Source of the DNA: an uncultured virus (IMG/VR IMGVR_UViG_2061766007_001805) | Lineage: Duplodnaviria > Heunggongvirae > Uroviricota > Caudoviricetes | DNA: 62,391 nt | Virus record (IMG/VR): IMGVR_UViG_2061766007_001805 | Strand: one strand, 5' to 3' | Shown: piece by piece, positions 447 through 57,793 of the stretch | Layout of the letters: each line of letters starts with the position of its first letter | Position numbering within the stretch: position 1 is the first letter of the stretch | Notes under the pieces: generated by a model | The model's database searches: none | Seen by the model: only the letters and a program-made list of their open reading frames with translations | Told to the model about the DNA's origin: nothing | Made by a program: the position numbers and the translations under genes

Positions 447-3400
447 ATGGGACAGAAAATAGAACATGGATTTAACAAAACTTAGGATGTTGGCACTCCA
501 ACATCATCACTGAACATACCGGCGTCGTCTATTATCATTCCTGCTCATCCAAAGAAGCGGGTGGAATCGGAAGATGCGGTTGGCGAGCCATTATCTGGAG
601 CATCTGAGCAGACAGAAAATTGTTTTGCTGCGAAACATTAGTTTAATTCGGATTTAACAAATGATGTTGGCAGTCCAACATCATCAACTTGTTTTGCTGC
701 GAAACAACAGGCTGGCACTTCAACATCATCTTCCGGAAATCAGAGGATGTCAGCCGGCAGTCCAACAGGAAATGCGGAGTCTGTGGTTGGTGAGCCTGGG
801 TTGTCAAGTTGTTTTGCTGCAGAACATTAGTTTAATTCGGATTTAACAAATGATGTTGGTGAGCCAACATCATCAAATCGTTCTGCAGCAAAACATCAAG
901 CTGACAGTATCCCAACATCGTCAACAAATTCTGTTGCATCACCCGTGTCTTGCGGAAGTCCAACGTCATTTCGCGGAACATCTGCATCATTTCGCGGAAC
1001 TATACAGTCGGAATCTTCAGCAGAGCAGTCATATTCCGGCACTCCAACATCATCTTACGGAAGTTCTATGGAATCTCGCGGAACCGGAACTGCATTTGGC
1101 GGAGCTGCAACATCATTTGGCGGAAGTTCATCATCATCGGCAGAGTCTGAAGCATCATTAGCAGACTCTGAAGCATCTGCACAGGTTAGTGATGACATTA
1201 CTGCGGATGATGTTGATAGTCCGGTGTCAGACAGTTCCGTATTAAAGCGTAAGCGTGGTCGTGTAAAGGGCAGTGTTTCGTCGAATAAGAGCAGTGGTGC
1301 ATCAAAGAAGATTGGAAAGTACGTATATAGTAAGGATGAAGCGGATGATGAGAAAAACAGTGTGTATGTCGATACAGAGAATTACTTTGACGCAGATCGT
1401 CTTGATGACAATCAGCCGATGAAGCAGGATCGCAAGTTATACAATGAGCCTATTGACATTCCGGATTGTTCTGAAGAGCGTTGGAAGTCTGTATGGAATG
1501 TCTCAGATGAGTACAAGTTGTACATTTCGAATCACGGAAGGGTCCGTATTATACCGGAAATCAAGACTAACAAGCACGGACGTCGTTTTCTCAACATACA
1601 TGGTGTTATGTATCCGATAGATGTGCTTGTAGCGTCTCTGTTCACTACGAATCCTACGAAGTCTGAGTTGGTTATTCACACGGACAGCAGTGTGGGCAAT
1701 GATCGTGCTGACAATCTGTGTTGGGTTCCGAACAAGACTGTTGATTATCCGGTCATCACTATGTGTAATATGACTACGAACACTTATCAGCACAAGTTGT
1801 ATCCGCGTCAGACTGTGGCGTTGATGAAGGATATGATGCACCGTATGATTCTGGACAAGATTCTGGTTCCTCTGATGCCTGGTTTGGCTCGTTGTCAGCG
1901 TCAGGTGATATATGACGGTATTTCTGAAGAGATGAACGATGAGGTTCTTGAGTACATAAGGGAGAAGTATCCGTATATGATGCCTGATGACATAGAGTGG
2001 TTGGGTGACAAGCCGGACAGGTTCAGGAGAAAGTGGAATCATGTGGTTAAGGGTAACAATGAGTACTTGTTGTCTGATGAGGAGTATGCAAGGGCGAAGG
2101 AGAACAAGGTTCAGCAGGTCAAGGACAGGGTGACTGCGTGGAACGAGTACCAGATTATGAGCAATTTGTATGACGGCGGTATAGACGGCGTGAAGTTGGG
2201 TGTGGATGTCGGTCCTTCCGGTGTGTATATGGATGACAGGCATGCGAGGGAGTATGTGGATGATTTGAGGAAGAGCGGTGAGAGCCGTTTGTCTTCGTTG
2301 CAGTACACGGATTTCAACAGGAGAATGAGAGAGCATAACGGTGCATAGCCTGCCAAGAGGTGGAATAACACGGATTTGGATAAAGGTTGTTACGGTGATA
2401 GTGTGAATCGTTCTGCTGCAGAACATCAGGCTGGTTCATCTCAGATGAGCAGTGAGTCTGGTAGCGGTTCGTCTCAGAAGAGCGGTGATTCCGGTCAGAA
2501 GCAGATGACAGCCGGTGACTGGTTCGGCAGTGCGTACGGTGCCGGCGGAATGAGCGGTGCGGTTGAGACTGTGGTGAAGAAGAAGGTGAGTGGTGTTCCT
2601 GATGTAGATGAGAATAATACGGATTTAACAAATGACAGTTATGGTATGTCACAAGCAAATCGTTCTGCAGCAAAACAATTGGCTGATTACTATTATGAAG
2701 ATGAGGATGAAGAAGATGATGATTCTTCTGAAGACAGTCCTGTGAATATCCACATTAATAGAGAAGATAATGAAGATGACAGTCTTGCCGGTCTGTATAG
2801 GGGCGGTAATACGAAGAAAGTGATAAAGATGAAAGAAGATGCTGTGAAGAGACAGCAATAGAGAGAGCAGGAGAATGTGAATTACAAGCGTTCTTCAGGG
2901 CGTGTTATGTTTGACGAATTCAAAGAGTACTTGGGTGGTAAACCTATGACAATGGAAGAGTACAAGAAGAAGCTGGAAGAGTATGAAGAGTTTAGAGAGC
3001 AGGGGTTCATGTATGCTAATTTTGACGAGAGTGTGTTTGAAGGCGGAGTGACTATGTTGGATCACGAGCCGTTGCTGACTCCGAATTAGAGACATGTGAG
3101 GTGGATGCGTGAGAACGGCAAGAGCATTAACGGCACTGTGGTGAAGAGAGACGACACCGGCATAAGATATTTCATTGATGAGAACGGTAAGTGGAGAGTG
3201 ATTATGGAGATTCCTGCGCCTGAGTTGCTGACAATCCGTGGAAAGTGGAATTTTGGCGGGGGAAGAAGGAGTCCGGTTCTGTGCACGTTCCCTAACGGCA
3301 AGGAGATGGTGTTCTGGAGTATAATATGTGCTGCTAAGTACTTGAATTTGGATATTGCGAATATAGTGAATTGTTGTCTTGGTAAGTCATCGATGACTGG

Positions 3401-3767
3401 TGGTATGAAGTTCAGGTATGTGGATGTCAAGGATGAGACGAGAGTCAATGATTTTTATGAAGCAAGATTGGAAGAAGACATAAGGGCATCTGAAGATGAT
3501 GACACTGACGATGAAGATTGCATATATGTTCTGAAACCTAAAATTGATGAGAATGGAAATACTGTGGATAGAAAGAAGGGACGTCCGAAGAAGAGTGAGT
3601 ACAGAAAGTTGTACAAGCCTAAGCAGACTGCCGGTGGTGTTCTGAATGTCATTGACAGAGCATTAGGTGACGTGTTTAGCACTGAAAAGAAGAAAAAGAT
3701 TAAACTGGATGACTATACTCCGACTGAATAGTAGATATAGGATATGCTGGACAGCAGTTTGGGGTGA
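447..3767 (+). CDS. ~1106 aa protein (code 15): Ser-rich repetitive N-terminus, NUMOD4 + degenerate HNH-like domain, acidic linker, NUMOD1-like HTH and AT-hook-like motifs
   Basis: ORFs 945-2348, 2376-2861, 2877-3089 and 3096-3731 share one frame and are separated only by TAG. The frame is open from ATG 447 to TGA 3765-3767. Motifs: ERWKSV...YISNHGRVR (NUMOD4), VLVASLFTTNP...IHTD...NDRADNLCWV (HNH_3-like), FWSIICAAKYL...IVNCCLGK...GGMKFRY (NUMOD1), KKGRPKK. The start codon is uncertain. Confidence 0.7.
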
Positions 3768-14006: not shown

Positions 14007-14903
14007 TCAATGTATAGTTTTACGGAATGTACATGTAGGATAATTACTGCATCCCAGGAAGGGACCGTACTGTCCGTGTTTCCTGATTAGCGTGCTTCCG
14101 CATTTCGGACAGATACCGGCATTGATTTTATCTTCTTTATCTTGTATGGTTGCGTGTATATTGTTGATATGGGTTTTCATAGAAACTTCATTTACAATAT
14201 TATTTGCAGTCAGTAACCGAGCAATCTCCTTTACATCTTCTGGTTGTATATACATTGCTCCATATTCTCTATATTCACGGAATATGTTCAATAATCCGAA
14301 GCCGTCTACGACATGGTATGCTGAACGTATGTTGCTTATGTCCGTATTGCCGACAAAACAGACAACTGGAATTACAGGCAGATTTTTCCAAGCTTTCAAT
14401 TTATTTTTTATAGCATATGTGTGCCCTATTGACTGTTTTACCGGGTTATAGAATTTGTATTTTGTTTTATAGGTATAAGTCTTGAATGGATTGCTTCTAT
14501 AATTCACATCAGTGAGTATTACCTGTGTCCATTCTTCTTGGTTGTCTTGACCGTATATAATTCCTCTGTAATTTTTTGTTTCTATTGCAAATATGCCGTA
14601 TTTTGAGACTACGATATGGTCGATCTGAGACGTAGTTCCATTATTAGTTAACAAGACTACATCATCCAGTATAATGAAACCATTTGGAAGATTCATCAGA
14701 ATGTTATGAACTTGTGCTTCACCGAGCTTGCCCCTGTATTGTGACAAATCAGTGCCAGATTCAGTTTTGGAACATTTATTAACCGATTTTCTCAGGTTAA
14801 AATATAAAATAACCGATAAGAGAAAGCCTATGAGTATTAGTATGTAAAAATACATAGGTATATAATCAAATAGAGCCATAATAGACATACAAATAGTAGA
14901 CAT
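14007..14903 (-). CDS. NERD-domain (nuclease-related) protein with N-terminal membrane anchor and C-terminal topoisomerase-type C4 zinc ribbon
   Basis: GKLGE, SQIDHIVVSKYGIFAIETKNY.G, FYNPVKQ, CPKCG...G.YG.FLGCSNYP.C; upstream TAnnTTTG promoter motif near 14922-14931. Confidence 0.9.
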   Translation of the reverse strand: MSTICMSIMALFDYIPMYFYILILIGFLLSVILYFNLRKSVNKCSKTESGTDLSQYRGKLGEAQVHNILMNLPNGFIILDDVVLLTNNGTTSQIDHIVVSKYGIFAIETKNYRGIIYGQDNQEEWTQVILTDVNYRSNPFKTYTYKTKYKFYNPVKQSIGHTYAIKNKLKAWKNLPVIPVVCFVGNTDISNIRSAYHVVDGFGLLNIFREYREYGAMYIQPEDVKEIARLLTANNIVNEVSMKTHINNIHATIQDKEDKINAGICPKCGSTLIRKHGQYGPFLGCSNYPTCTFRKTIH

Positions 14904-17561: not shown

Positions 17562-18323
17562 TTAATAATCCGGGAAGCAGTTATATAGTTTGAGAAGCAG
17601 TTGGTTATTTACAGTGAGTTCTTTTTTTATATTATTATATTTCTTTTCCGGGAAGAACAGATTGACTATAGTAACTAATTTCCAGTTAGGTTCTACTATT
17701 GATGTTTTATCGATGTTATTTATTTTATTATTGTGGGTATATGGATTGACTATAGCAAATCCCATAACTGGCATAATGTTATAAACATACATTGAATCTA
17801 CGAATGTGTTATAATTTTTATTTCTCCATAATGTTTTCATAATATTACCGACGAACTTGCATGCTGCTGTATATGACTGTGTTTTTGGTAGATTAAAGAA
17901 CAATAATACACTCAACTCTTGATTTTCTAATGTATCATAATATGTGATCAATTTATATCCATGGAAATCAAAGAACTTACAGTCTTCTAATTTAGTTTTA
18001 ATAAGGTAACTTATATGGTAATCTTCTTCTGACACTACCGGTTTTGAATATTCCATTCCATATGAGTCAAACAGATAAAAGAGTTTCTTGAGCATACATG
18101 GTATTTTATTAGTCCATAGATCAGAGTCTGTTAGAATATGTTTATTTGTTTTTATACCTAAGGTTATATAATGACTGTATTTGGATGACATTGCATTATA
18201 ATACTCTTTTCCGTTAGCATACTCAAAAGAGTTGTAATTATTAGGTAACATACTGTCATCTGAAGATTTAATATCGTCATCAGTCAGTTTCAGATCATCA
18301 AAGTAACTTTCGTTCAATATCAT
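17562..18323 (-). CDS. MILNE-family paralog, 253 aa
   Basis: Intact ORF. Confidence 0.9.
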   Translation of the reverse strand: MILNESYFDDLKLTDDDIKSSDDSMLPNNYNSFEYANGKEYYNAMSSKYSHYITLGIKTNKHILTDSDLWTNKIPCMLKKLFYLFDSYGMEYSKPVVSEEDYHISYLIKTKLEDCKFFDFHGYKLITYYDTLENQELSVLLFFNLPKTQSYTAACKFVGNIMKTLWRNKNYNTFVDSMYVYNIMPVMGFAIVNPYTHNNKINNIDKTSIVEPNWKLVTIVNLFFPEKKYNNIKKELTVNNQLLLKLYNCFPDY

Positions 18324-20024: not shown

Positions 20025-20768
20025 TTAATCATCCGGGAAACATCTATATAATTTAAGAAGCAGTTGTTTATCTTTGATGAGTTCTTTTTTTATATCATTA
20101 CCATTCTTTTCCGGGAAGAACAGTTTGATTATATTAATTAATTTCGTGGAAGGTTTTTCTATTGATGTTTTATCAATGTTAACTAATTTATTGGTATATG
20201 GATTGACCATAACAAATATTATATCCATAAAATTATAAACACTAAATGAATTCACGAATATGTCATATAATTTATTTTTCCATAAACACCTCATCATATT
20301 ACCGACGAACTTACATGCTGCTGTATATGACTATGTTTTTGGTAGATTAAAGAACAGTAGCATACTCAACTTATTAAACCCATCTAATGTATCATACGTT
20401 GTGAACGCTTTATATCCATGGAAATCAAAAATCTTACAACCTTTAAATTTAGTTTTAATAAGGTAACTTACATAGTAATCTGGTTCTGTTACTACCGGTT
20501 TTGAATATTCTATTTCATATGTGTCAAATAGATAAAAGAGTTTCTTGAGCATATGTGGTATTTTATCAGTCCATAAATAAGAGTCTGTTAGAATATGTTC
20601 ATCTGTTTTTATACCTAAGGCTATATAATGACTGTATTTGGATGACATTTCATTATAGTATTCTTTTGGATTAGCATAGTCATCAGTGTTGAGATTAACA
20701 TCATCTGAAGATTTAATATCGTCATCAGTCAGTTTCAAATCATCAAAGAAGTCTCCGTTCAATATCAT
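20025..20768 (-). CDS. MILNE-family paralog, 247 aa (code 15)
   Basis: TAG at 20331 aligns with CAG (PKTQSY) in 17562-18323. Confidence 0.85.
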
Positions 20769-21010
20769 CTGTATATGGATAAATCAATTTCATTATTTAT
20801 TCTTCTGGAAGATGAAAAGCGGTAATCTTCCATAACTACGCTTCAGGTTAAAAAACAGCAGTTTATCACGGATGTGAACAGAAGCCGGTTTGGTAATACA
20901 GTAGTCCGGTAGTATAGTGCTTCAACAACAACTCTTGATAGTGATTATATTGTTCTGTAGCGAAACAAGTGGTTTTGTTTGGACTGCCAGACATCATCTG
21001 CATAATATAG

Positions 21011-21140
21011 AAAAAGAGCACTATCCTCACGGACAATGCTCTTAGAAATTTTTAAATTTAATCAAAATGAAAATAAAAATACACAGTTTCTATATATTAT
21101 ATTGCCGTTTTCTTGAATAGTTTTTAAAAATCCATGTTTT
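21011..21140 (-). ncRNA. Second small-RNA-like cassette family: conserved upstream motif, variable segment, hairpin GAGCA..GTCCGTGAGGATAGTGCTC-Tn (copies ~23008, 25946, 27019, 49289)
   Basis: Same flanks with different 50-60 nt interiors in 5 copies. Confidence 0.45.
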
Positions 21141-21167
21141 TATAATTTATTAACAATATTCATAACT

Positions 21168-22772
21168 TTAAAATAAGGATACTTGAAGTTGTTTAACATC
21201 GTCTATTCTATTTGATGCTTTCTTTACCGGTTTCGGCGACTCATAACATCCATCGCATTTGATTTTGAAATTATAATACTTGCCGGTTGATTCACTGATG
21301 ATGTTAAGATTCACATTATCTCCCAAATCGATTAAAGTGAGCAAGTGGTGTAATCTGTCTATTTCTTCAGGTGCTCTTAAAATCAAGTCCACGTTAATTC
21401 TGTCCACATGGGAAAAACATGTTGCAAACATAGGCATATACGTCACAAAAGAAGGTAAGGACTCTACTTCAACGCTAACAGTATCAAAGTCCGTATTCTT
21501 CTGCATAAGGTCATCAAAGACATTCTGCGGTTCTATTGCACAACCTTTATAGCCATTCGATGCAATGTAGAAATTCCCTTCAGTATTCTCCACATTTACA
21601 TTATTCATGAAATCTTCATAATCAAGCAATCTCTTTATCTTGCTTGCTATCGTATAGCCTATATGAGTAGGAACAGCTTCACCTATGCATCTCCTGATGT
21701 TTCCTTCATTTGCCTTCAAGTATTCGTCGGAGTTTTCAACAGTTAATTCAGCATCATGGTCTGTCCATTGAAATGTATTTGGAATTGTCATCAGAGTCAT
21801 AAGTTCCCTAATGCTGAGAACACGATTATCACATGGGTGAATTGTATCTTGCGATGACATAATATCACTCCTGGTTGCAATGCACGCACCGGGTCTGTTC
21901 CATATGAGTCTGCGATACTTATTTCCCATATATGCACCCTTATTGATAATACGATTACCATCTTTGTCAAAAGTACATGGCTTGGTATCGTCCGGATTAT
22001 CAAAGGCTGTCTCTCCTTCTTTTAAGTCCTTTATCCAGGCAAGCATATACTCAGGGAAAGGACGTGCAAAATGGAAAGGATCGTGTTTATCTTTCTCTCC
22101 AAAAGCAAGACGTGGAAAACTGCCAATGGAATCTCTGAGCAAAATCTCATTCTTTCTTGTCGGAAATAAATCAAGGGGCATAACATGGTGGAGTTCACGG
22201 CTTGTACCAATCACAAGTGTTCTTGGTCTGCTTGATGGAACGCCATAATCCTTGAAATTAATTATCTTCCAATAAATGTTATAATATTCAGACAGATTAT
22301 TAAATATGCAATCCCTTATAGTCATATCTTGACCGGATATGTCTGTGCAAATGGATTTCATAAATGCACGGACATTCTCGAACACAAAGACTTTAGGATG
22401 GATTGTCATAATCATCCTAATAGCTTCGACGACAAGAGAGTTTCTGATCTGCTCATGTTCATTCTTCTTATAGTTAGCCGTTGACATGCCTTGACATGGG
22501 GGTGTAGCGAACACTACATCAACTTGTTGTAGGTTATGCTTATCTCGCCACATCTGTATTTCATCCATAATCATTTGATGTGTTTCCGGAGATGTTGCAT
22601 CACCGCAGATATAACCGCTTTCGTAACGGCATTTGTGATTGGCACGTTGTACTGATATTCTGGATTCCTGTAATTCATTGGATGCTATGCACTCGAAATC
22701 GTTCATTTTGAAGCCGTAGCATCCTACACCGGCACAACTGAAAAGTGATATGTAAGTTCTTGTCATATACAT
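21168..22772 (-). CDS. C5 cytosine DNA methyltransferase (orphan; start may be 22766)
   Basis: Motif I SLFSCAGVG, catalytic PPCQG, FENV, RPRT, R.LS.RE, GEAVP. Confidence 0.92.
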   Translation of the reverse strand: MYMTRTYISLFSCAGVGCYGFKMNDFECIASNELQESRISVQRANHKCRYESGYICGDATSPETHQMIMDEIQMWRDKHNLQQVDVVFATPPCQGMSTANYKKNEHEQIRNSLVVEAIRMIMTIHPKVFVFENVRAFMKSICTDISGQDMTIRDCIFNNLSEYYNIYWKIINFKDYGVPSSRPRTLVIGTSRELHHVMPLDLFPTRKNEILLRDSIGSFPRLAFGEKDKHDPFHFARPFPEYMLAWIKDLKEGETAFDNPDDTKPCTFDKDGNRIINKGAYMGNKYRRLIWNRPGACIATRSDIMSSQDTIHPCDNRVLSIRELMTLMTIPNTFQWTDHDAELTVENSDEYLKANEGNIRRCIGEAVPTHIGYTIASKIKRLLDYEDFMNNVNVENTEGNFYIASNGYKGCAIEPQNVFDDLMQKNTDFDTVSVEVESLPSFVTYMPMFATCFSHVDRINVDLILRAPEEIDRLHHLLTLIDLGDNVNLNIISESTGKYYNFKIKCDGCYESPKPVKKASNRIDDVKQLQVSLF

Positions 22773-23118: not shown

Positions 23119-23883
23119 TCAAATATCTGTGTTTTTATTCAAGCTGAAATACTTGTATAGTTTCTTGTACTCTGCTTTATTATTATCAAACAGTTCATCC
23201 TTTATTGTCTGTGTGTCTTTTTCCGGAAAGAACAGTCTCAGCCAGTCAAACAGCAAATCGGAGTTCTATGTCATTGTTATTCTCAGACCGGGATATTTGA
23301 TTGGATTGAAGATATAAGAACCCCAATTTGTATTATATGAGTTGATTCGTTTGAGCTCCCATATGTAGAAGCATTCGATTCGGTTTTCATACACACTGTT
23401 CCATAAGCATTTCATAATATTGCTGTTGAACACACATGCTGACTTATACGAGCGGATTACCGGAAGATTGAATAATATGACCGCTGTGTAAGTACTTAAA
23501 TATTTCAGTGCTTTAGCACCGCTGTCGCATCGGGTTGCCAACTTAAATCCGTAAAAGTCGAGGAAGTTGCAGTCTTTAAATGAATCCGAGAAATGATTTG
23601 AGACACCGTCCTGTAATATAGGCTCTGAGTAGTCTATTCCGTATGCATCGAACAGGTATTTGACTCGTTTCAATATGAACTGTATATATTCTACCGTCTC
23701 TTTTTCGTTTTCAGAGTTCACAAAATTGATGTTGATGCAGTGAGTGTACTTGATCTTCATATCAGCAAACCATTCTTCAGGAGTAACATACTTGTTGTTA
23801 TGAGATATGGCAATGCCGTCTGAAGATTCGATGTCTTCATCCTTTATCTCCAAATCATCAAAGTAGTCTTCATTTAATATCAT
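23119..23883 (-). CDS. MILNE-family paralog, 254 aa (code 15)
   Basis: TAG at 23266 read through to LFFPEKD...KLYKYF..TGA. Confidence 0.85.
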
Positions 23884-24269
23884 CTGTATATGGATAAATC
23901 GGTTTCATTATTTATTCTTAATTGACTGGTAAATGGCTTTTACTACGCTTCAGGTTTAAAAACGGCAGTTTATCACGGATATTCTGTAGAATCATATAAG
24001 AGCTTTGATAGTTGCTGTCCCGGTTCCAACATCATCTCTTGAGTTTCATTTGATTAAGTTGTTTTGCTGCAGAACAATTAGTTAGTTTAGAAATTCAACA
24101 TATTAAAGAAGGTAACGATATACGTGTTGACACATTTTAATTCATATATATTTGATTGACAACTGATTGTGTTGTATTTTGTATTTAATTATTCATATAT
24201 TTGATTTTCATATAAATTGTTTGTTGATTTCAGAATTTTTTTGTAACTTTGCCTGCAAATAAAATTTAT

Positions 24270-25385
24270 ATGATACAGGCTTACAGATATAAGATATTAC
24301 CTGATGCTCAACAGAAAGTTGTTTTATCTAACTTTTTCGGTTGTGCAAGATTCATATATAACTGGGGTTTGAATATAAAGACTAAAGAATACGAGACAAG
24401 CAAGAAAAGTGTCTCATATAATCAACTTGCTAAAGAACTCACTCAACTCAAGAAGAAAGAACAATATTCATGGTTGAATGATGTAACTGTAGAATCTCTA
24501 CAGCAGTCTTTACGGAATCTTGAAACTGCTTTTTCCAAATTCTTTAAGAAAGAAGCAGAATATCCTCAGAAGAAAAAGAAGAGAAAATGCAAAGACTCTG
24601 TGAAATTCATTAGGAATATCCATTTTGATTTCAATAAATGGATGGTTAAACTACCGAAGATTGGTTGGGTGAGTCTTTGCAAGAACAGGATGTTTGATAC
24701 AAACTCATGTAAAACCGGAACTTGTACTGTCAGCAGAGATGCTTGCGGTGAATATTGGTGTTCTATCTTAGTGGATGACAAGCATATTGCTCCGATGAAA
24801 GCCAAATTGGAGAAAGATAATGCAGTCGGCATCGATTTGGGCATCAAAGACTATGCTATACTCTCTGACGGTATCAAGTTCCATAATCCGAAATATCTTG
24901 AGAGAACAAGTCGGAAACTCACATGGACACAGAGGTCTTTTTCAAGAAAGACTAAAGGTTCAAAGAACAGAGAGAAACAGAAGACTAAACTCCTGAAGTA
25001 TTACAGACTTGTCACTAACCAGAGAATTGACTATCTTCATAAGGTTTCCACGGAAATTGTCAGAAATTACAATACAATATGTATTGAAGATCTGAATGTG
25101 GACGGTATGATGAAGAATCATAAACTGGCAAGAAGCATACAGTCTGCAAGTTGGAGTGAGTTCAGAAGGATGTTAGAGTATAAGTCTGAGTGGTATGGTA
25201 AAAATCTGCTTGTCATCGGCAGGTTTGAACCAAGCAGCAAGACTTGTAATAAATGCGGATACATCAAGAAAGACTTGACATTGAAAGACAGAGAATGGAT
25301 ATGTCCTGTATGCGGAGAACATCATGACAGAGATGTTAATGCTGCAAGAAATATCTTGGATATGTCTTTTAAAAATGTGAAATAA
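24270..25385 (+). CDS. tnpB: TnpB RNA-guided endonuclease (IS200/IS605 OrfB family), 371 aa
   Basis: AYRYKI.P...FGCARFIYNWGL HTH; RuvC GIDLG, IEDL and DRDVNAARNI; SSKTC..C / CPVCG zinc finger; TAACTTTG promoter motif at 24244. Confidence 0.95.
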   Translation: MIQAYRYKILPDAQQKVVLSNFFGCARFIYNWGLNIKTKEYETSKKSVSYNQLAKELTQLKKKEQYSWLNDVTVESLQQSLRNLETAFSKFFKKEAEYPQKKKKRKCKDSVKFIRNIHFDFNKWMVKLPKIGWVSLCKNRMFDTNSCKTGTCTVSRDACGEYWCSILVDDKHIAPMKAKLEKDNAVGIDLGIKDYAILSDGIKFHNPKYLERTSRKLTWTQRSFSRKTKGSKNREKQKTKLLKYYRLVTNQRIDYLHKVSTEIVRNYNTICIEDLNVDGMMKNHKLARSIQSASWSEFRRMLEYKSEWYGKNLLVIGRFEPSSKTCNKCGYIKKDLTLKDREWICPVCGEHHDRDVNAARNILDMSFKNVK

Positions 25386-25491
25386 AATGCCCATAGGTAA
25401 GTGGGATAAAGACTGTGGAGGGCAAGGTCACAAGACTCCCTATGAAGCAGTAAGATGTACAAGGCTTTGTGCCAACATGTATATCGTTACC
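25386..25491 (+). ncRNA. Putative omegaRNA/reRNA scaffold region 3' of tnpB
   Basis: GC-richer hairpin-forming segment after the stop codon, conserved in the MITE at 57503-57597; position matches known TnpB reRNAs. Confidence 0.5.
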
Positions 25492-25702
25492 TTTTATTAT
25501 TCCATAGATTAGAGTCTGTTATAATATGTTCATCTGTTTTTATACCTCCTAAGACTATATAATTGCTGTATTTAGATGACATGGCATTATAGTACTCTTC
25601 TATATTGGCATAGTCATCAGTGTTGTGATTAACATCATCTGAAGATTCAATATCCTCATCGGTCAGTTTCAGATCATCAAAATAGTCTTCTTTTAATATC
25701 AT
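25487..25702 (-). pseudogene. 5' remnant of a MILNE-family gene truncated by the TnpB element
   Basis: Similar to the N-terminus of 20025-20768, then runs into the TIR. Confidence 0.85.
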
Positions 25703-26087: not shown

Positions 26088-26780
26088 TTAACATAAAAAA
26101 TATCTTTGTTGTATTTTTTTGTATTCTGCTCTGTTGTTATTAAACAATTCGGATTTTATAGCATCCTTATTTTCCGGAAAAAATATTTCGATTATATTGT
26201 TTATATTGATTAGTATTTCGAATTTGCTGTCACAATTATTAAACAGATTTACTTCAGAGAGTTCTTGTATATTCCGTATAGTTACAATTCTACAATACTT
26301 ATTTTTCTTCCATATATATTTCATTATACTGCCCATGAACTATAAGACATTTTTATATGATTGTTTTTTTGGTATATTGATGAAAAACACTAAAGTCAAA
26401 TAATCAATATCTTTTTTATTTTCGTCTGAAATGATTTCTAATCCATTAACTTTAATGAGAGTACAAGTTTTGTAACCGGTTGCCATATCTTTGTCTGAAA
26501 CTGATTGCAATGTCACTTCTGAAGATTCTATTCCACATGCATTGAATATGTACTGTATTCTCTTTATGATTAATGATATGTTTTGTTTCCACTGATTATG
26601 TTTTATTTTCACTCCTTTCAACTAAATAATAACACTGTATGTGTATTTTGATTTAACATCCATATACCACTCTTGTAGATTAGGATATTCATTGACATGA
26701 GATGTGACGATGCCGTTTGAAGATTTTATGTCATCATCTGTTATTTCTATGTCATCAAAGTAGTTTTCATTTAGTATCAT
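26088..26780 (-). CDS. MILNE-family paralog, 230 aa (code 15)
   Basis: In-frame fragments joined across TAGs at 26340 and 26622. Confidence 0.8.
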
Positions 26781-27177
26781 CTGTATATGGATAAATCAGT
26801 TTTATTATTTATTCTTTATTGTCTGACAATTCACCCTAACTGCGTTACAGGTTAAAAAACAGCAATTTATTGCGGATATTCTGTAGGATCATATAAGAGC
26901 TTTGATAGTTGCTGTCCCGGTAGTCCAACATCATTTCTCTTGATTGAGTATTATCAAGTTGTTCTGCAGCAAAACAAGTGGTTTTGTTTGGACTGCCAGA
27001 CATCATCTTCATAATATAGAAAAGAGCACCATCCTCACGGACTGTGCTCTTTTCTGTAATAACAAATTTATATTTGAACTATTATCTATTATTTTATACT
27101 GCCGTTTTCTTGAATAGTTTTTAAAAATCCGTGTTTTTAATTTTTATTAACAGTCCGTCAAGTTGAAATGCTTATAA

Positions 27178-27933
27178 TCAATCCCAATACCGTTTGTTTA
27201 TCATATCGACTTCAAATTTCGGATAGAAATATTTCCACAACTTATACAGCAGTTGCTTGTCATCAGCAAACAACTCTTTTTTTATAGTCTGTTTGTCTTT
27301 TTCAGGAAAGGACAAATATAATATGTCTATTAAATTTGCTATTCTGACTGTATGGTGGTTATCGCTCTTATATAAATAACTGTATTCATTAACATTGATA
27401 TTACCTAAGAAAAAATCCTTATACTCTAACTGTTCAGAGGTTTTAGTATTCCACAGGCAGTTTATAATACTGCTGACAAACTTGCAGACACTTTTATATG
27501 ATTTCGCTTCCGAAAAATTGAAGAATACCGGCAAATAGACCGGCAATGATTTAATACTGTATTCCTATTTATTTTTCTTTGAGATTAATTTATAATCGTA
27601 GAAATCACGGAAGGTGCATCCTTCATATCCGCTCATATTATACAGGGTTGAATCTTGCAGTATTGCTGATTCTGAATAACATTCTGCACCGTATGCATCG
27701 AATACATACTGAAGATGTTTTATAATATAGTCGATAATCTATTTCCACTTTTGGTATTCTTCAGAAAATGTACCATTAGTTGTTAACATGATAAGCAGAT
27801 AATTATTATATCTTGACTTTATATATTCAAACCATTCTTCAGTGTTCTGTAGTACTGAAGGTGCAATATCATCAGTTGAGTCAGGTTCTGGTTCTATGTT
27901 CTGATCATCAAAAAAATCTTCGTTCAATATCAT
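27178..27933 (-). CDS. MILNE-family paralog, 251 aa (code 15)
   Basis: In frame across 2 TAG. Confidence 0.85.
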
Positions 27934-57451: not shown

Positions 57452-57502
57452 TGTGTATAGTATTTTATTTTTGATGTGAATTGATGTAATTGTAAAAAGT
57501 AT

Positions 57503-57715
57503 GGTAATGATATACATGTTGGCACAAAGCCTTGTATATCTTACTGCTTCATATGGTTGCCCTCCACAGTCTTTATCCCACTTACCTATGGGCATTTGAT
57601 ATATGTTTATTTATGAGCGAAGTTACAAAAAAATTCTGAAACCAACAAACATTTTCATAATAAATTATTAATCTAATTATTATGACTAAATTGTGCCAAC
57701 ATATATATTGTTACC
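57503..57715 (-). mobile_element. 213-bp MITE of the TIR-TnpB element (promoter plus putative omegaRNA region, tnpB deleted)
   Basis: TIRs GGTAATGATATACATGTTGGCACA / TGTGCCAACATATATATTGTTACC; 8-bp duplication AAAAGTAT at 57495-57502 and 57716-57723; interior matches 24218-24250 and 25385-25491. Confidence 0.88.
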
Positions 57716-57793
57716 AAAAGTATAACAACATGCTGTTGCTCTTGTCATAGTTCTGCTCTGAAATTTATATCTTGAAGCATTTGTTCTGGCATA

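Follow-up and report, generated by a model that had tools for sequence, protein, structure and literature searches.

The 62,391-nucleotide stretch of DNA recorded as an uncultured virus of the Caudoviricetes (IMG/VR record IMGVR_UViG_2061766007_001805), which we call the window at its full length, carries an intact gene for the RNA-guided nuclease TnpB between two inverted ends of the IS1595 type. Cas12 descends from TnpB, which is also a compact genome editor. The role generally assigned to TnpB, to restore a transposon that has been excised without a scar, was established with IS605 and IS607 elements. Our analyses indicate that the element at 24111-25491 (1381 bp) is very probably a non-autonomous cassette that is moved in trans by an IS1595-type transposase. 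They also indicate that it belongs to a whole lineage of tnpB genes paired with such ends, which was found in rumen bacteria and giant phages.

The window element is a tnpB cassette with IS1595-type ends

The inverted ends of the element are 24 bp each and agree at 22 positions. The left end, GGTAACGATATACGTGTTGACACA (24111-24134, plus strand), starts with GGTAACGATATAC, an outer motif common to the autonomous elements L006, L011, L012, L020, L032, L035 and L037 (loci are given as L numbers). The right end (25468-25491, minus strand) is its reverse complement with two mismatches, and the right terminus of the element is the reverse complement of GGTAACGATATACATGTTGGCACA. When the window was searched with the end sequence allowing up to three mismatches, three matches were obtained against 0.00 expected from 100 shuffles. 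A degenerate end pattern recovered all four window ends, two from the tnpB element and two from a miniature inverted-repeat transposable element (MITE). The single open reading frame (ORF) between the ends of the element is tnpB (24270-25385, plus strand; 371 aa), which is preceded by a left subterminal non-coding region (24135-24269, plus strand) that is largely kept in the ORF-less MITEs. The tnpB stop codon lies 82 nt from the right inverted end and 106 nt from the end of the element (25385 to 25491), within the 250-bp limit applied to DDE-associated TnpB. Since tnpB is the sole gene and no transposase match was found in the window, we regard the element as a non-autonomous derivative and not as an insertion sequence in its own right. 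Judged by its sequence, it is an IS1595-family member, a passenger cassette with tnpB as its only gene. The upstream region includes TAACTTTG (24244-24251), 18 nt upstream of the tnpB start codon. Its sequence, almost unchanged in the MITEs, is similar to TAnnTTTG, the -7 promoter motif of Bacteroidota. A scan for sigma-70-type promoters returned a number of sites that was not above that of shuffles.

The second element in the window is a 213-bp ORF-less MITE (57503-57715, minus strand). Alignment with the tnpB element showed that it equals the element minus the ORF, being composed of the left part, CATATATC as the eight bases at the joint, the omegaRNA region that follows the stop codon and the right end. 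It is flanked by a perfect 8-bp duplication, with AAAAGTAT on both sides (57495-57502 and 57716-57723). The original prediction, made from the letters of the window alone, had described both the 24-bp terminal inverted repeats around tnpB and this sister MITE with its 8-bp duplication, and both descriptions hold. The ORF-less joint, 24263 to 25385, recurs in DNA contigs from two other studies, and the window MITE and L022 both lack a 12-nt hairpin of the RNA scaffold. Another ORF-less MITE was observed in a metagenome-assembled genome (MAG) with the duplication CAAACTTT (L003:3001-3225). At the same site, recognised by an identical 30-nt flank, the element in a sheep-gut sample has 120 nt or more from the 3′ end of tnpB. 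As this site is ORF-less in one MAG and tnpB-bearing in the sheep-gut sample, the sequences suggest that the MITE arose in place through deletion of the ORF.

Elements with the same ends encode IS1595 transposases

IS1595 elements have GG-started ends and make 8-bp duplications. Using the degenerate end pattern, we located six loci in MAGs of Bacteroidales, Prevotellaceae and Muribaculaceae and 32 loci in metagenome contigs, while the same scan of viral contigs gave no match. Complete end pairs were counted by hand, with L037/38 merged with L012/13 (same site, reversed). A perfect 8-bp duplication was present in 13 out of 17 distinct complete pairs, and the pairs without it were the window tnpB copy, L005, L014 (an 84-bp pair) and L024/25. 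The transposase-bearing elements share the 24-bp ends with zero to two mismatches and make 8-bp duplications. Specifically, the left end of L006 (2863 bp, duplication ATTATTTA) and the right end of the window element agree at every position (24/24). L006 encodes a 310-aa transposase that matched the Pfam families DDE_Tnp_IS1595 (4.1e-44) and Zn_ribbon_IS1595 (PF12760), and the NCBIfam model NF033547 with 208.9 bits (cut-off 75). By tblastn, the L006 transposase was found at 84-95% identity inside the end pairs L011, L012/13, L020, L032/33, L035/36 and L037/38, and also in L024-26 and L030. Autonomous IS1595 elements from viral contigs, with transposases 39-62% identical to that of L006, share the outer motif GGnAAynATATAC, and their 8-bp duplications are TTTTTTTT (L123/124), TAATAAAA (L130) and AAAATTAA (L133). 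Because transposase-bearing loci have the same ends and the same length of duplication, sequence comparison identifies IS1595 as the partner family. The original prediction had proposed a DDE-type transposon, with IS1595 among the candidates, and a search for an autonomous partner by its end sequence; that search led to L006 and the other elements with an IS1595 DDE transposase.

Apart from the window, tblastn detected tnpB in only four of the loci found with the end pattern, L002 (92%), L027 (94%, truncated at the end of its contig), L007 (64%) and L028 (59%). None of the loci that we fetched and examined contained tnpB and an IS1595 transposase inside one end pair. Within a single metagenome, Ga0247610 by contig name, we found the tnpB copy L027 (94%), the MITE L022 and the autonomous copies L024-26. 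In L134 (827-3439), a tnpB cassette terminates with its right end at 2018, and 62 bp further on stands an IS1595-type left end, GGCACTGATATAC, at 2081; the transposase gene of this locus (2513-3439) lies behind its own left end, making two adjoining elements and not one composite.

A tnpB lineage is paired with IS1595-type ends

A profile built from four TnpBs retrieved 80 viral loci. Many of the viral TnpBs, at 49-65% identity, were flanked by diverged ends of the same type (GGnAAynATATAC...). We compared 32 distinct right junctions from the window and loci L002-L134 and located the left end as well for 24 of them; the TnpBs of these 24 two-ended elements are about 49-100% identical to that of the window. 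In a tree of 77 distinct TnpBs (IQ-TREE, quick mode), with the end labels assigned by hand, the window TnpB fell in a clade of 25 (SH-aLRT 99) in which 22 rows had IS1595-type ends, the other three being L058 with a left end only, L059 with none and one row truncated at its contig end. The second clade, of 15 (SH-aLRT 98), comprised 12 rows with such ends and three without (L040, L083 and L087), and none of the remaining 37 rows had them. Together, the two clades account for 34 out of the 36 rows with IS1595-type ends. The end label required 4 changes on the tree compared to about 26 in shuffles. According to these sequence relationships, the pairing of tnpB with IS1595-type ends is a property of the whole lineage and is old. 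The original prediction that tnpB had been captured by a DDE transposon and was moved in trans is thus supported, except that a single capture does not agree with an old, lineage-wide association. At the family level, a genome search for TnpB at E <= 1e-60 gave matches in only 4 out of 401 genomes.

Two loci of this set deserve a separate description. In L045, a 251-aa ORF with a GIY-YIG-like N-terminus (1680-2435) lies upstream of tnpB within the same end pair. It matched the group I intron endonuclease model TIGR01453 weakly (36 bits, below the cut-off), and the cassette would hold two different nucleases. In L007 (the same locus as L058), about 230 nt of G+C-rich, structured-looking sequence (3225-3450) is placed between the IS1595-type left end and tnpB, and this copy has no right end. 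Rfam searches of the window region and of L007 returned nothing credible.

Several results weigh against mobilisation in trans by an IS1595 transposase. The window tnpB copy has no duplication, its flanks being TTAAAGAA on the left and TTTTATTA on the right, as the original prediction had noted. Across the two-ended tnpB elements, only 7 out of 24 had a perfect 8-bp duplication (L002, L043, L044, L045, L046, L048 and L078); in several others, the flanking 8-mers match at 6 out of 8 positions, and the left-end assignments are doubtful for L051, L060, L075 and L134. The IS1595 transposase was not found by tblastn in the 62-kb window. Likewise, the MAG that carries L002 and a MITE gave no match with the L006 transposase as query, a weak negative, as MAGs are incomplete and often lack repeats. 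Among the five MAGs behind L001-L006, the transposase was present only in G002, as L006 itself.

An empty site and a probable local loss account for the flanks

L002 is a 1335-bp tnpB element, with a TnpB 92% identical to that of the window, and is flanked by the duplication ATAATTTA. Using its left flank as query against 201 genomes of the genus of its MAG, we found an empty site, L140, in which the left and right flanks of L002 overlap by exactly eight bases, that is, a single ATAATTTA. This overlap indicates an insertion with duplication exactly at the inverted ends. A comparison with empty sites was among the checks put forward with the original prediction, which would have been refuted by other copies with IS605-type ends, boundaries off the terminal repeats and no duplications; L002 and others end exactly at the inverted ends and have 8-bp duplications. 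Along with the identical ends, the duplications and this empty site, the presence of the elements at multiple sites of insertion gives indirect support to mobilisation by an IS1595 transposase. The same scan with the left flank of L043 returned only L043 itself. The 190 bp beside the L002 cassette (L002:2810-3000) is a repeat present in several copies per genome and was matched in 123 out of the 201 genomes at 71-88% identity.

The window copy lies in a tandem array of small paralogous genes (about 15000-40000) with conserved N-termini (MILNEDYFDD...) and upstream regions, examples being 23266-23883, 25487-25702, 26340-26780, 27739-27933, 17565-18323 and 20334-20768. Dozens of blastn matches at 69-91% identity run across the array, several copies are in pieces, and no Pfam family matched its genes. 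Homology to the paralogues breaks off exactly at both ends of the element. To the left, positions 23884-24110 are the sequence upstream of the neighbouring family gene (23266-23883, minus strand), and the alignment of this flank with another unit (about 26666-26983) continues to the base adjoining the left end. The right flank, from 25492 on, is 85.6% identical over about 600 bp to the unit at 20561-21155. The element truncates a family gene (MILxEDYFDD...; 25487-25702, minus strand) to 71 codons, with the stop codon inside the right inverted end, in agreement with the original prediction that the 3′ part of a family gene had been replaced. The unoccupied right-flank site is preserved in a paralogue (18100-18123, plus strand) as GGTA followed by TTTTATTAGTCCATAGATCA (also as GGTA followed by TTTTATTAGTCC...), and the intact site also occurs in a DNA contig from another sample. 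Starts of family genes are usually about 1.1 kb apart, whereas across the element the distance is 438 bp after subtracting the element itself, indicating that about 650-700 bp, comprising the 3′ part of the gene and whatever followed it, are missing. The window copy would therefore have no duplication because this sequence beside it was lost. The adjacent deletion put forward by the original prediction fits a loss of this size, although, as far as the sequence tells, recombination between two nearby copies in the same orientation fits equally well; by either process, the copy would have lost its duplication together with part of the repeated gene unit.

TnpB is under purifying selection and is accompanied by a conserved RNA scaffold

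The window TnpB matched the Pfam families OrfB_IS605 (2.6e-26), Cas12f1-like_TNB (2.7e-24) and HTH_OrfB_IS605 (1.2e-15), and the NCBIfam model guided_TnpB (NF040570) with 336.9 bits (cut-off 100). It remained under the cut-offs of the IS200/IS605 TnpB model NF038281 (407.5 bits, cut-off 425) and of the IS607 TnpB model NF038280 (220.8 bits, cut-off 350). Residues 4-362 align to the solved ISDra2 TnpB (E 1.7e-76). The motifs GIDLG, IEDLN and DRDVNAA, presumably the bearers of the RuvC D, E and D catalytic residues, are unchanged in four TnpB relatives, so that tnpB is intact, with its RuvC motifs, as originally predicted. The ratios of nonsynonymous to synonymous substitution rates (dN/dS) were 0.12 for the window and L002, 0.16 for the window and L027 and 0.05 for L002 and L027, and TnpB is under purifying selection.

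Downstream of the gene, a conserved scaffold of a guide RNA (omegaRNA) is predicted at 25375-25491 (plus strand). Compared with shuffled sequences, the part downstream of the stop codon has a more stable fold (z = -2.19), and RNAalifold on 15 elements gave 10 pairs, 7 of them with compensatory double changes, from which we conclude that the scaffold is structurally conserved at the sequence level. The 5′ end of the omegaRNA may be inside the tnpB ORF. In addition, the junctions of the cassettes are biased. T directly follows the right end in 29 out of 32 distinct junctions, and A precedes the left 8-mer in 20 out of 24. The mirror positions are unbiased, with A 11, T 11 and C 2 next to the left end, and A 12, T 8, G 3 and C 1 at the ninth position beyond the right end. 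T adjoins the ends of ten autonomous IS1595 elements in 11 out of 20 cases (hand count), and those of four oriented MITEs in 1 out of 4. A symmetric transposase should not give a signal that depends on orientation, which may point to a constraint related to the target-adjacent motif (TAM) or to a flank base in the scaffold.

These observations bear on whether tnpB is a mere cargo without a role in spread, either a decaying relic or a gene used by the phage or host in defence or gene regulation. Passengers unrelated to tnpB do occur in IS1595-type cassettes, namely the 187-aa ORF of L006 and, as second passengers beside tnpB, the GIY-YIG-like ORF of L045 and a 142-aa ORF in L043. It has also been argued that cut-and-paste DDE elements profit little from TnpB (PMC13565253). 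Nevertheless, we regard an inert passenger as improbable in view of dN/dS values of 0.05-0.16 with intact catalytic motifs, an RNA scaffold conserved through compensatory changes, an old association that extends over whole clades and an A and T signal tied to the orientation of the right end. A function of tnpB unrelated to mobility would be compatible with all of these points.

The right inverted end is predicted to form the last stem of the omegaRNA

In distant relatives without IS1595-type ends, a terminal hairpin with a short tail (...AGnnGUCAR) stands at the place that corresponds to the right end of the cassettes. In most of 21 elements, the 7 nt after a TGAAnCnnnAA anchor are predicted to pair with GUAUAUC of the inverted end, enclosing a spacer and always leaving a 6-nt tail. 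The closing pair in the 20 elements with the anchor is G-C in 8, U-A in 4, G-U in 3 and another combination in 5. The right terminal inverted repeat would thus serve also as the 3′ arm and 6-nt tail of the last omegaRNA hairpin, and the guide would be templated by the following flank, TTTTATTATTCCATAGATTA (25492-25511, plus strand, by its position). The predicted guide of the window copy, TTTTATTATTCCATAG..., matches the paralogue at 18104-18123 at 18 out of 20 positions. In a sheep-gut RNA library, one contig of 637 nt extends over 25265-25491 and on into the flank of the L003 site. Contigs from RNA runs cover parts of tnpB and the right end; starts, ends and strand are not readable from them.

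The architecture also has points against it. The pairing between scaffold and inverted end is only modestly above shuffles (98 out of 140 cells, a value reached by 46 out of 2000 shuffles), and RNAalifold did not return the terminal hairpin, the spacer being not alignable. The junctions yielded no TAM, their only enriched feature being the A and T pair at the duplication's 5′ edge. The read-through into the flank is a hint from one assembled contig, in which DNA carry-over is possible.

A different arrangement would be a fixed guide, with the scaffold ending at the ...CAAGAUAGUAAAUCC-like motif before the right end and the inverted end itself acting as the guide; TnpB would then cut IS1595 ends and might thereby promote excision or act against IS1595 copies that compete with the element or belong to the host. 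Conservation of the scaffold indeed falls after this motif, where a spacer of variable length begins, the motif is shared by distant relatives without these ends (L085/L087), and L007/L058 has the scaffold with unrelated sequence at the position of the right end. However, L058 is sister to L044, in which the right end is intact, and therefore looks like a decayed copy. Moreover, the canonical relatives have their terminal hairpin and short tail in this place, spacer and inverted end fold into a hairpin with a 6-nt tail and a covarying closing pair in most of the 21 elements, and the T found outside the right end in 29 out of 32 junctions is hard to explain if the RNA ends inside the element. 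Scaffolds built with inverted-end, duplication or flank bases are also described for Fanzor and IS607 elements (Yoon et al. 2023, NAR, PMC10711439). A fixed guide is, in our estimate, quite improbable. The hairpin of the relatives, the pairing of the inverted end and the T bias outside it favour a guide taken from the duplication plus flank, and we consider it fairly probable, on the basis of the modelled folds, that the right inverted end became the last stem and tail of the omegaRNA and that the guide is transcribed from the variable 8-bp duplication and the flank.

Giant phages carry the cassettes without an IS1595 or Y1 transposase

Four phage genomes of 351-393 kb, all 100% complete according to CheckV, contained 10 TnpB matches in total. 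Neither the IS1595 DDE domain (PF12762) nor the Y1 transposase (PF01797) was found in any of these four genomes. A fifth phage record, the 29% fragment G409, has a canonical Y1 TnpA beside a distant tnpB, an IS605-type pair (L152, G409:C1:9488-12850; Y1 TnpA 128.6 bits). The same fragment also carries three cassettes of the inverted-end type, a contrast within one phage group. With the element as query, blastn and tblastn yielded nothing but relatives with about 42% protein identity, Lak megaphages among them, and megablast of the window segment 15000-24110 against phage records gave no match. In the window, the Pfam search for Y1 TnpA covered ORFs of at least 140 aa (33 ORFs plus tnpB, the methylase and the neighbouring family gene) and found none, although a small TnpA could escape at this length.

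An IS605-type tnpB element moved by a Y1 TnpA and nested inside an IS1595-derived MITE, with hairpin ends of its own inside and only incidental inverted ends, would agree with the score of TnpB near the IS200/IS605 model (407.5 bits for a cut-off of 425) and with the Y1 TnpA of G409, but it is highly improbable, given that the pairing extends, over a range of about 50-100% identity, to two clades whose ends have diverged in step with the tnpB lineages, that the 82 nt from stop codon to right end are RNA scaffold pairing with that end, that the MITEs keep exactly the element minus the ORF and that Y1 transposase is absent from all four complete phage genomes with their 10 TnpB matches.

The mobilised cassette could spread by two routes. 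An IS1595 transposase encoded elsewhere, probably by a Bacteroidales host, would move it in trans and make new insertions, whereas TnpB would spread existing ones among giant rumen phages by homing, cutting the unoccupied allele, into which the cassette would then be copied by recombination. The importance of homing would be greatest in co-infections by giant phages without any transposase, and we propose this role of TnpB tentatively, as something that could be true but falls short of probable.

Other genes and features of the window were as follows. A C5 cytosine DNA methylase of 534 aa is encoded at 21168-22772, a NERD nuclease with a Top1-type zinc ribbon at 14010-14903 and an ORF with an I-HmuI-like NUMOD domain at 3096-3728. 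Pfam searches of 33 window ORFs yielded only the NERD and Top1-type zinc ribbon domains and the I-HmuI-like domain, and for most of the remaining ORFs there was no family. The window derives from runs of bovine gut metagenomes. Its G+C content is about 34% overall and ranges from 31 to 42% across 3-kb windows, and reading the window with alternative stop codons gave no clear gain in long ORFs.

Discussion

Altogether, these results could be joined into one scenario, in which a TnpB lineage exchanged its IS605 chassis for IS1595 ends, the right end became the last stem of the RNA, the guide came from the duplication and flank, and the cassettes spread by two routes and gave rise to guide-only MITEs. 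Taken in its entirety, this scenario is possible but less likely than not. If it were true, MITEs that have no ORF but retain the guide-RNA module would ride on both enzymes as guide-only elements. The lineage is a natural case of how a TAM-dependent nuclease copes with the target choice of a DDE transposase, and it permits asking whether homing alone maintains cassettes in giant phages. It also supplies a set of TnpBs of about 370 aa with defined element ends and RNA scaffolds, the latter as predicted.

The principle of a DDE-linked TnpB is not new, since it was already published in 2023 for other DDE families. Six DDE-associated TnpB branches (DDE-1 to DDE-6) with inverted terminal repeats were described, in which tnpB lies within 250 bp of the transposon end and solo tnpB genes share the ends, implying mobilisation in trans (Altae-Tran et al. 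2023, PNAS, PMC10691335). The text of that paper, as far as it was accessible, names IS630 only, and IS1595 occurs in the supplementary information just in a list of profiles for the comparison of mobility (PMC10691335). A 2026 review lists ISL2, IS630 and IS1031 as TnpB-linked DDE families (PMC13565253). It also states that prokaryotic TnpB is seldom tied to DDE transposons, because cut-and-paste elements would gain little from it and its target recognition is inflexible, and that IS605 elements have no inverted ends, make no duplications and insert beside a fixed TAM (PMC13565253). The present lineage bears on this argument, as it is stably tied to IS1595 ends, with a variable duplication and no transposase in cis in the examined loci. 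A full-text literature search returned no paper linking TnpB to IS1595. What appears to be new is the IS1595 chassis, the probable mobilisation in trans only, the variable 8-bp duplication, the predicted inclusion of the inverted end in the guide RNA and the abundance in giant phages without a transposase.

The cassettes resemble the DDE-associated TnpBs in having tnpB inside inverted repeats, its 3′ end near the terminus (106 nt here) and ends shared with transposase-bearing elements. In contrast to them, no examined locus encodes the transposase together with tnpB, and the duplication is 8 bp long and variable in sequence (PMC10691335 for the comparison). With the IS200/IS605 elements of the IS1341 group, they have in common the TnpB family and a structured RNA overlapping, or located behind, the tnpB 3′ end, but they differ from that group, as outlined in the review, in the 24-bp inverted ends and in relatives with variable 8-bp duplications (PMC13565253). 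Inverted ends and 8-bp duplications also separate them from IS607.

Regarding the guide RNA, a flank base in the scaffold has been shown for IS607, and Fanzor elements that have inverted ends were proposed to contain one as well (Yoon et al. 2023, NAR, PMC10711439). The incorporation of inverted-end and duplication or flank bases into the scaffold is the shared feature, and the T at our junctions is reminiscent of the right-flank nucleotide of IS607; the systems covered there are eukaryotic transposons with fixed short duplications, or IS607 (PMC10711439), whereas the cassettes described here are prokaryotic and phage-borne, have an IS1595 chassis and a variable 8-bp duplication, and their RNA model is a predicted one.

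The closest chassis remains the IS1595 family itself. It reportedly includes passenger-carrying members, called transporter IS by Siguier, Gagnevin and Chandler in 2009, and derived MITEs. The cassettes agree with this family in their GG-started inverted ends, AT-rich 8-bp duplications (in copies other than the window tnpB element), relatives with a DDE transposase whose zinc ribbon is N-terminal, passengers and MITEs. They depart from it in a cargo that consists of an RNA-guided nuclease and its guide RNA in a cassette without transposase, and in a right inverted end that appears, by prediction, to double as a part of the guide RNA.

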